Part shown: piece by piece, positions 13,704 to 14,067 of the stretch | How the letters are laid out: each line of letters starts with the position of its first letter | Position numbering within the stretch: position 1 is the first letter of the stretch | NCBI GenBank assembly: GCA_964016885.1 | Contig: OZ024743.1 | Location: forward strand, 164,486,001-164,550,000 | Origin: Eledone cirrhosa | Taxonomy: Eukaryota | Length of the DNA: 64,000 nucleotides | Reading direction: 5' to 3' | The notes under the pieces: model-generated | Seen by the model: the letters and a program-made list of their open reading frames with translations, nothing else | Told to the model about the DNA's origin: nothing | The model's database searches: none | Position numbers and translations under genes: made by a program

Positions 13704-13957
13704 TACCCATCTGCCAGATAGTTGAACGTTCGAAAGTATATACTTTCCTTATAAAAATTAACGGCTGAGCAGCCTAATTTGCATATTGAGTGAGTTAAAT
13801 CGGTCAGGCATACCGAAAACGATAAGTTGAAAAAAATGAAAACGAAATTTCATTTCTCACTCTTAGTATGGCACTTACTTAAATGTAAGTATGTATGCAT
13901 ACGTACATACATATATGTATACAGACGTACAGTAGCATATGTATGCATATGTGTATA

Positions 13958-14009
<52 letters not shown>

Positions 14010-14067
14010 TGCTACTGTACGTCTGTATACATATATGTATGTACGTATGCATACATACTTACATTTA

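Follow-up and report, generated by a model that had tools for sequence, protein, structure and literature searches.

How did two arrays of short, ribozyme-bearing repeats in one stretch of the Eledone cirrhosa genome, both set in TA microsatellite, each come to be inverted at one end? The stretch, here called the window, is 64,000 nt long (assembly GCA_964016885.1, contig OZ024743.1, positions 164,486,001 to 164,550,000 of the forward strand) in a host genome of 3 Gb, and the arrays are built from a 492-nt and a 310-nt unit. A first-pass annotation of the window had explained each inversion as a cDNA end snapping back to prime its second strand, and had named a Penelope-like element as the mobiliser. 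We grade the mobiliser as probably right and the snap-back as probably wrong. We consider it likely that the insertions are two head-to-head, 5'-truncated runs with two fixed RNA ends, made by a Penelope-type reverse transcriptase (RT)/endonuclease that primes from both cut strands of a (TA)n tract.

We compared the sequences directly and found both annotated inverted matches to be exact: 13880-13938 against 14009-14067 (59/59) and 57586-57608 against 57613-57635 (23/23, loop TCGC). A motif scan placed the hammerheads of the 492 array on the minus strand (13211 and 13703) and those of the 310 array on the plus strand (57743 + 310n, 7 copies), so that both inversions lie at the ribozyme-5' end, as annotated. 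However, neither inversion is a terminal hairpin: what is inverted is in each case a second arm, attached head-to-head to the first. Although the 59-bp match stands, alignment of 13930-14075 to the unit gave an inverted piece of 128 nt (13940-14067) rather than 59, and the 70-nt 'spacer' belongs to it as inverted unit sequence, leaving no loop. A search for inverted repeats across the whole window was swamped by TA tracts.

Positions within a unit are numbered from the predicted hammerhead cleavage site, and the outer end of each arm falls at either a long (L) or a short (S) site. The 492 insertion consists of an L arm of 1102 nt, about 2.2 units (12837-13938, minus strand), with its RNA-3' long end (unit position ~334) at 12837 and 5' truncation at unit position 221, and an S arm of 128 nt (13940-14067, plus strand; unit positions ~160-279), the two separated by a single base outside both arms (13939). 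The 'tail' between the short (~279) and long (~334) sites is found at the L end only (12837-12887, minus strand). Predicted type I hammerhead motifs lie at 13167-13211 and 13659-13703 (minus strand), the first with a CUGAUGA core, a stem II with an AACA loop, GAAA, a palindromic minimal stem III and a UA cleavage site. The 310 insertion consists of an L arm of 23 nt (57586-57608, minus strand; unit positions 143-165), which ends at the commonest long site, and an S arm of 2163 nt or 7 units (57606-59768, plus strand), which ends at the short site (unit position 128); they share 3 nt of microhomology (57606-57608), and the first of the 7 predicted type I hammerheads, spaced at 310 nt, is at 57744-57786 (plus strand). 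(TA)n target tracts flank the 492 insertion at 11101-12836 and 14068-15114 and the 310 insertion at 57406-57585 and 59769-60874, and the tracts around each array have the same C-only polarity left and right, as expected of insertion into one tract. The two cases are ordinary two-arm insertions having one short arm, and their geometry is no chance event: dozens of loci repeat it.

We next considered what the units are. A type I hammerhead core and stems could be read in all 7 copies of the 310 unit and both copies of the 492 unit, and the units occur as short head-to-tail tandems dispersed across many loci; they look like type I hammerhead retrozymes of the kind that lacks long terminal repeats (LTRs). 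The unit sequences viewed contain no LTR structure and no obvious coding region, as judged without an open reading frame (ORF) or domain scan. Rfam gave no match in the window at the gathering score; below it, Hammerhead_HH9 matched the 310 unit (E 3.6e-4) and the 492 unit (E 0.19), and hammerhead folding z-scores were weak (-0.1 to -1.6). Low-threshold Rfam matches to microRNAs were discarded as noise from TA repeats. For both units we infer a mobilising enzyme, circular RNA and ribozyme activity. A search of public sequencing runs listed no RNA run among the holders. A 340-nt contig present in three public runs matches the 310 unit only, and a circle and trace tandem DNA fit it equally. Metazoan non-LTR retrozymes, in the portions of the literature drawn on here (PMC7229834; PMC7761336; 10.64898/2026.07.22.740005), are likewise non-coding tandem units of a few hundred nt at hundreds of loci, with one type I hammerhead per unit and a weak palindromic stem III. 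The 492 unit is longer than the 170-400 nt range given in that portion of Cervera and de la Pena 2020 (PMC7229834), and falls inside the 51-972 bp range of the preprint by Li, Clavereau and Pollet 2026 (10.64898/2026.07.22.740005). Head-to-head two-arm insertions, fixed L and S ends and (TA)n targeting are not described in those portions of the three papers; they propose Penelope mobilisation of retrozymes from common hammerheads, co-occurrence and similarity to the Penelope pseudo-LTR (pLTR).

To see how general the two-arm form is, we counted copies genome-wide with sequence patterns in which a unit end joins TA (controls gave 0). The 310 long end gave 647 forward matches and, since the reverse count was partly doubled, a total of about 1,250; the 492 long end gave 399 plus 386 (~785 junctions). 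For the 310 unit we then viewed 21 regions among the 150 top matches listed and the first 41 long-end places on contig C1, and for the 492 unit 15 regions from the top matches and all but one of the first 21 long-end places on C1. The commonest insertion form is two arms joined at their ribozyme-5' ends, each from 23 nt to more than 4 kb long, and no tail-to-tail join was seen at any locus viewed. This scoring of inversions and flanks in other copies, which the annotation had put forward as a check, thus found inversions present and consistently on the ribozyme-5' side. Outer ends of the 310 unit fell at about 160-172 (L) and 126-139 (S), those of the 492 unit at 332-336 (L) and 276-279 (S). 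Both units therefore carry a tail at one end only and an inverted, 5'-truncated copy at the 5' end, as in the Penelope footprint. Among 310 insertions not picked by their ends, 20/24 were head-to-head, and all 20 of these paired one long with one short end (L+S); with independent 50:50 ends the chance of this is about 1e-6. In the positional sample an inverted S arm accompanied 39 of the 41 long ends, the others being one single arm and one end beside an assembly gap. The top-scoring 492 loci were head-to-head in 12/16 cases (11 L+S, 1 L+L).

A few loci depart from this form in their own ways. At L045 and L119, single L arms have a 5' end that joins TA at the short-end site, as though the second arm had zero length. 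At L083 (1099-1371), 273 nt of GC-richer unrelated sequence, unmatched in the other sampled loci, separates two 310 arms. Internal duplications were seen at L049, L067 and L081. L053 is L+L with mirror-image flanks, and L165 is a near-perfect L+L palindrome (1381/1382 nt) with unlike flanks that resembles a genuine fold-back.

In snap-back, a single cDNA folds and copies its own strand, with the far end set by an endonuclease cut or TA microhomology. A copied second strand must lie within the first and start a short way back, and containment and offset therefore test it. Our arm statistics rest on 54 clean 310 insertions, after dropping L049 (a partial duplicate), the rearranged L067 and L081, L083 with its 273-nt insert, and L079 and the second L082 insertion, whose arms extend past the edge of the retrieved sequence. 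A fixed RNA site bounds the inverted arm, and length does not favour either arm: L was the longer in 27 insertions and S in 27, and arm lengths were uncorrelated (Spearman 0.03). Neither arm contained the other in 9/54, compared with 5.6 expected if the arms are independent and 0 if one is copied; these 9, and 6/16 L+S insertions of a Penelope family resident in the same genome (described below) in which again neither arm contains the other, could not have arisen by copying one arm from the other. In the snap-back direction, offsets of 1-40 nt occurred in 5/54 against 7 expected, so there is no excess of short loops. Furthermore, the S arm of the window's 492 insertion has unit positions 160-220 (60 nt), which the adjoining arm lacks in that unit; local snap-back is therefore impossible there, and only a jump back of hundreds of bases could supply them.

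The two arms do share a history. Both carry the same majority haplotype in 28/30 positional loci, versus 83/962 comparisons between loci, and the shared haplotypes include variants absent from every other sampled locus, so a single RNA, or a single source, normally gave rise to both arms. Snap-back would also give a shared haplotype, as it would the L165 palindrome and the window's 23-bp hairpin with its 4-nt loop and 3-nt overlap. Taken alone that hairpin could be snap-back, yet its end is the commonest L site, and arms from different families are also found joined, as snap-back would not produce. Snap-back fails as a general mechanism, for which we regard it as improbable, and is possible for the rare L+L palindromes.

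The junctions bear on a further explanation, self-priming on an antisense template as put forward for rotifer Penelopes, which would yield head-to-head repeats with palindromic centres. The case for it, in the part of the source used here (PMC3846280), is argued from palindromes at inverted junctions, and two further TA-targeting families, X and Y, have recurrent palindromic centres (though the query itself contained the centre). In contrast, junction positions of the 310 unit and the resident Penelope are scattered, with overlaps mostly of 0-5 nt; junction phase in the 310 unit is uniform (Rayleigh p 0.10 and 0.40), and both outer ends match start sites on the sense RNA. We give antisense self-priming as little weight as snap-back. 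The 5' ends of the 310 unit also ignore the hammerhead cleavage site (2/108 near it, 3.8 expected), and the enzyme therefore read through it. Microhomology of at least 2 nt was present at 29/46 resolved junctions, compared with 18% at random; 7 junctions have small insertions and 6 were unresolved.

Microhomology at a head-to-head joint is also known from LINE-1 (long interspersed nuclear element 1), in which twin priming from both target strands gives a head-to-head 5' inversion. Its first priming is on poly(A) and its second at an internal site that varies, and this happens in a minority of insertions. A LINE (L1/RTE) enzyme working in this way, with its first primer at the RNA 3' end and its second at a random internal site, would explain the geometry, and L035, where the final 30 nt of a different abundant repeat adjoin a 310 arm, and L094, which fits upstream priming on one linear RNA, are in keeping with it. 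However, both priming sites are fixed and internal here, poly(A) is absent, 310 insertions are normally inverted, and the Penelope family leaves an identical footprint. We think L1-style twin priming slightly less probable again than antisense self-priming. Finally, the structures could be post-insertion rearrangements or fold-back artefacts of long-read assembly, as the mirror-image flanks and L+L ends of L053 and the internal duplications at L049, L067 and L081 might suggest. Against this, arms are unequal and have different fixed end sites and different flanks, and contigs of public run X1, which may be from the same animal, contain 10 further inverted-to-direct arm joints at other phases; we consider this source very improbable. 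The public-run contigs yielded neither an empty allele of L031 nor a sequence spanning the window hairpin, which is neutral either way.

As annotated for the window's arrays, TA lies on both sides of 85/89 insertions (17 of the 89 being Penelope copies), and the microsatellite or AT-rich target of the Penelope footprint is thus also found. Informative direct duplications flank 11/89 insertions, compared with 2.9 in shuffled pairs, a count that periodic host tracts inflate; the clearest, of 21-32 nt, are at L125, L104 and L074. Penelope and retrozyme insertions cluster within shared TA tracts, with spacings that are often within tens to hundreds of bases (L042, L068, L076 and window 57406-61958). 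Between TA tracts in the window, a segment of about 1 kb (10071-11099, minus strand) resembles by eye a 5'-truncated LINE reverse-transcriptase fragment.

A Neptune-like Penelope fragment adjoins the 310 array in the same TA tract. It is a single 5'-truncated arm (60875-61958, minus strand) with a GIY-YIG end, a pLTR hammerhead near 61098-61142 and its long end at 60875. Its family is young and abundant, with 98-100% identity in all 150 scored matches listed. The copy at L157 has a 4276-nt unit with a single intact 1281-aa ORF encoding RT, a Cys linker and, at its C terminus, a GIY-YIG domain. RVT_1 (E 6.6e-5) and GIY-YIG (E 2e-4) matched slightly under the Pfam cut-offs, the whole ORF gave no match against Pfam, and a PDB search with the RT gave a single weak match. 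From the sequence we read a C-X4-C-X2-C linker before GIY-YIG and a pLTR hammerhead motif; in the part of PMC8557442 used here, a CX2-5CxxC linker ahead of GIY-YIG is a Neptune feature, and the family appears to be Neptune-like. The ORF also has an Asn/His-rich insert ahead of the RT, resembling the N-rich inserts reported in rotifer Penelopes, and tandem full-length copies lie on contig C6.

This resident family inserts in (TA)n and its two outer ends are 60 nt apart, giving a 60-nt tail. Of its head-to-head copies seen in full, 16/17 were L+S, so the comparison with Penelope termini in the same genome, also proposed in the annotation, came out in favour of a Penelope-like mobiliser. Because 15 Penelope regions were chosen as opposite-strand pairs, they test the end rule and not inversion frequency; 7 short copies met incidentally were all L+S. 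We regard the L157 family as a candidate mobiliser of the retrozymes. Endonuclease-containing (EN+) Penelopes such as Neptune and Naiad are similar in the parts of the sources used here (PMC8557442; PMC3846280), with an inverted 5'-truncated copy at the 5' end, a one-end tail, partial tandems and microsatellite targets. In contrast to them, the insertions here have a non-coding passenger in multimeric form, their 'inverted copy' is the longer arm as often as not, and they carry tails of about 33-60 nt. The component features (the inverted copy, tail and microsatellite bias of Penelopes) are thus already known, and in those parts Craig et al. 2021 (PMC8557442) and Arkhipova et al. 2013 (PMC3846280) explain the tail by endonuclease resolution and the inversion by self-priming. 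The strict pairing of one long with one short end and the independence of the arms are quantified here; our literature search, which did not cover older Penelope reviews and supplements, returned no account of L+S pairing or of two-arm retrozyme insertions.

We propose that the GIY-YIG endonuclease would nick both strands of a (TA)n tract, with a stagger where a duplication is visible, and that the two 3' ends would prime at different sites, one long and one short. The two primings would probably be carried out by the two protomers of a dimer, aided by 2-4 nt of UA pairing. Hammerhead sites would not halt either enzyme, the template being a circle or a multimer left uncleaved and in most cases one RNA or source for both, and each cDNA synthesis would stop independently of the other. 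The cDNA 3' ends could then anneal over 0-5 nt, each templating the other's second strand; with the cDNAs serving as each other's templates, a separate second-strand primer would be unneeded. Extension of one side only would leave a plain single-arm array.

The biochemistry of PAc, the Poseidon enzyme from Anolis, supplies by analogy an enzymatic basis for such double priming. In vitro it cuts and extends both strands of an AT-rich target (Frangieh et al. 2024, PMC11167929); its RT starts at two internal positions, between which the tail lies, it is a predicted dimer, and it does not need hammerhead cleavage (PMC11167929). The start sites bounding the tail, the use of both strands, the AT-rich target and the predicted dimer are all like what we propose here, and the PAc study leaves second-strand synthesis and inversion unexplained (PMC11167929). 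A stronger version, which we hold tentatively and at somewhat less than an even chance, is that Penelope integration is obligatorily an asymmetric double target-primed reverse transcription (TPRT), in which a dimer sets one active site on the long start and one on the short start, two RNAs are possible and the cDNAs prime each other.

Joints between families are what two RNAs would give. Two loci, L111 and L062, have a 492 L arm head-to-head with the S arm of a different TA-targeting family, each partner family having hundreds of candidate copies; such chimeras would be the expected product of two primings on two RNAs. Arrays also bear on the template. At L088 one variant is fixed in all 14 units; it was seen in 7 arrays of several units and in 8 single units, and the 13-unit arm is longer than any other run (maximum 8). 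This pattern, and homogeneous arrays of up to 14 units, fit rolling-circle amplification from a monomer; later unequal crossover or an unassembled source is also possible for L088.

Several observations weigh against the double-priming account. The positional 492 sample was self-inverted in only 10/20 loci, with 8 single-armed, 1 chimeric and 1 unresolved, and those 10 comprise 5 clean L+S, 1 complex L+S, 2 with non-standard ends, 1 rearranged and 1 running off. Both L053 and L165 have L+L ends. Deletion between two insertions lying side by side in a single TA tract could have produced the chimeras. Arrays L094, L103, L104 and the window's 492 array contain unlike units, which a single monomer circle leaves unexplained; the mixed arrays at L094, L103 and L104 fit linear multimers or later conversion. 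PAc shows no strand preference of start site and no start homology (PMC11167929), whereas here the ends are strictly paired and there is UA microhomology. Finally, no retrozyme matched the one resident Penelope family compared (blastn E<=1), so homology of the units to its pLTR was likewise not found, and tails of about 33, 56, 60, 80 and 91 nt have no common fold, hairpin or motif. With no shared tail fold and no sequence match, the resident Penelope therefore marks the kind of enzyme, and not necessarily the partner family. A comparison of five families gave a single matching pair, the 310 and 492 units, which are similar at the hammerhead (E 0.045) and along a TA-rich stretch.

Other elements of similar form occupy the same tracts. 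Family X (L197-L216) is hammerhead-like and lies in (TA)n, with arms of about 175 nt, a tail of about 90 nt and a recurrent hairpin centre with a variable loop. Family Y (L177-L196) is a palindromic element of about 210 nt that lies in (TA)n and has a long end and a short one; the same 14-nt palindromic centre was present in the copies viewed, the query itself having contained it. If double priming is true, a palindromic RNA of this kind would regenerate itself. A 310 arm at L035 (5626-5655) and an X-like arm at L225 are each fused to the last 30-45 nt of another abundant repeat, one with 13,312 pattern matches and ATAC runs at its end.

The cited papers leave open which enzyme moves animal retrozymes, and how the tandem and inverted structures of Penelopes and their second strand arise. 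The double-priming model replaces self-priming and gives sharp predictions in vitro, which could be tested with short templates and a young element whose ORF is intact; insertion that needs neither an integrase nor a second-strand primer would interest builders of RNA-templated insertion tools. If asymmetric double TPRT is true, one rule would cover the tail, the inverted pLTR, circle-rolled retrozyme multimers, cross-family chimeras and self-renewing palindromic mini-elements. Altogether, the footprint links retrozymes to the Penelope machinery through mechanism, beyond their co-occurrence.
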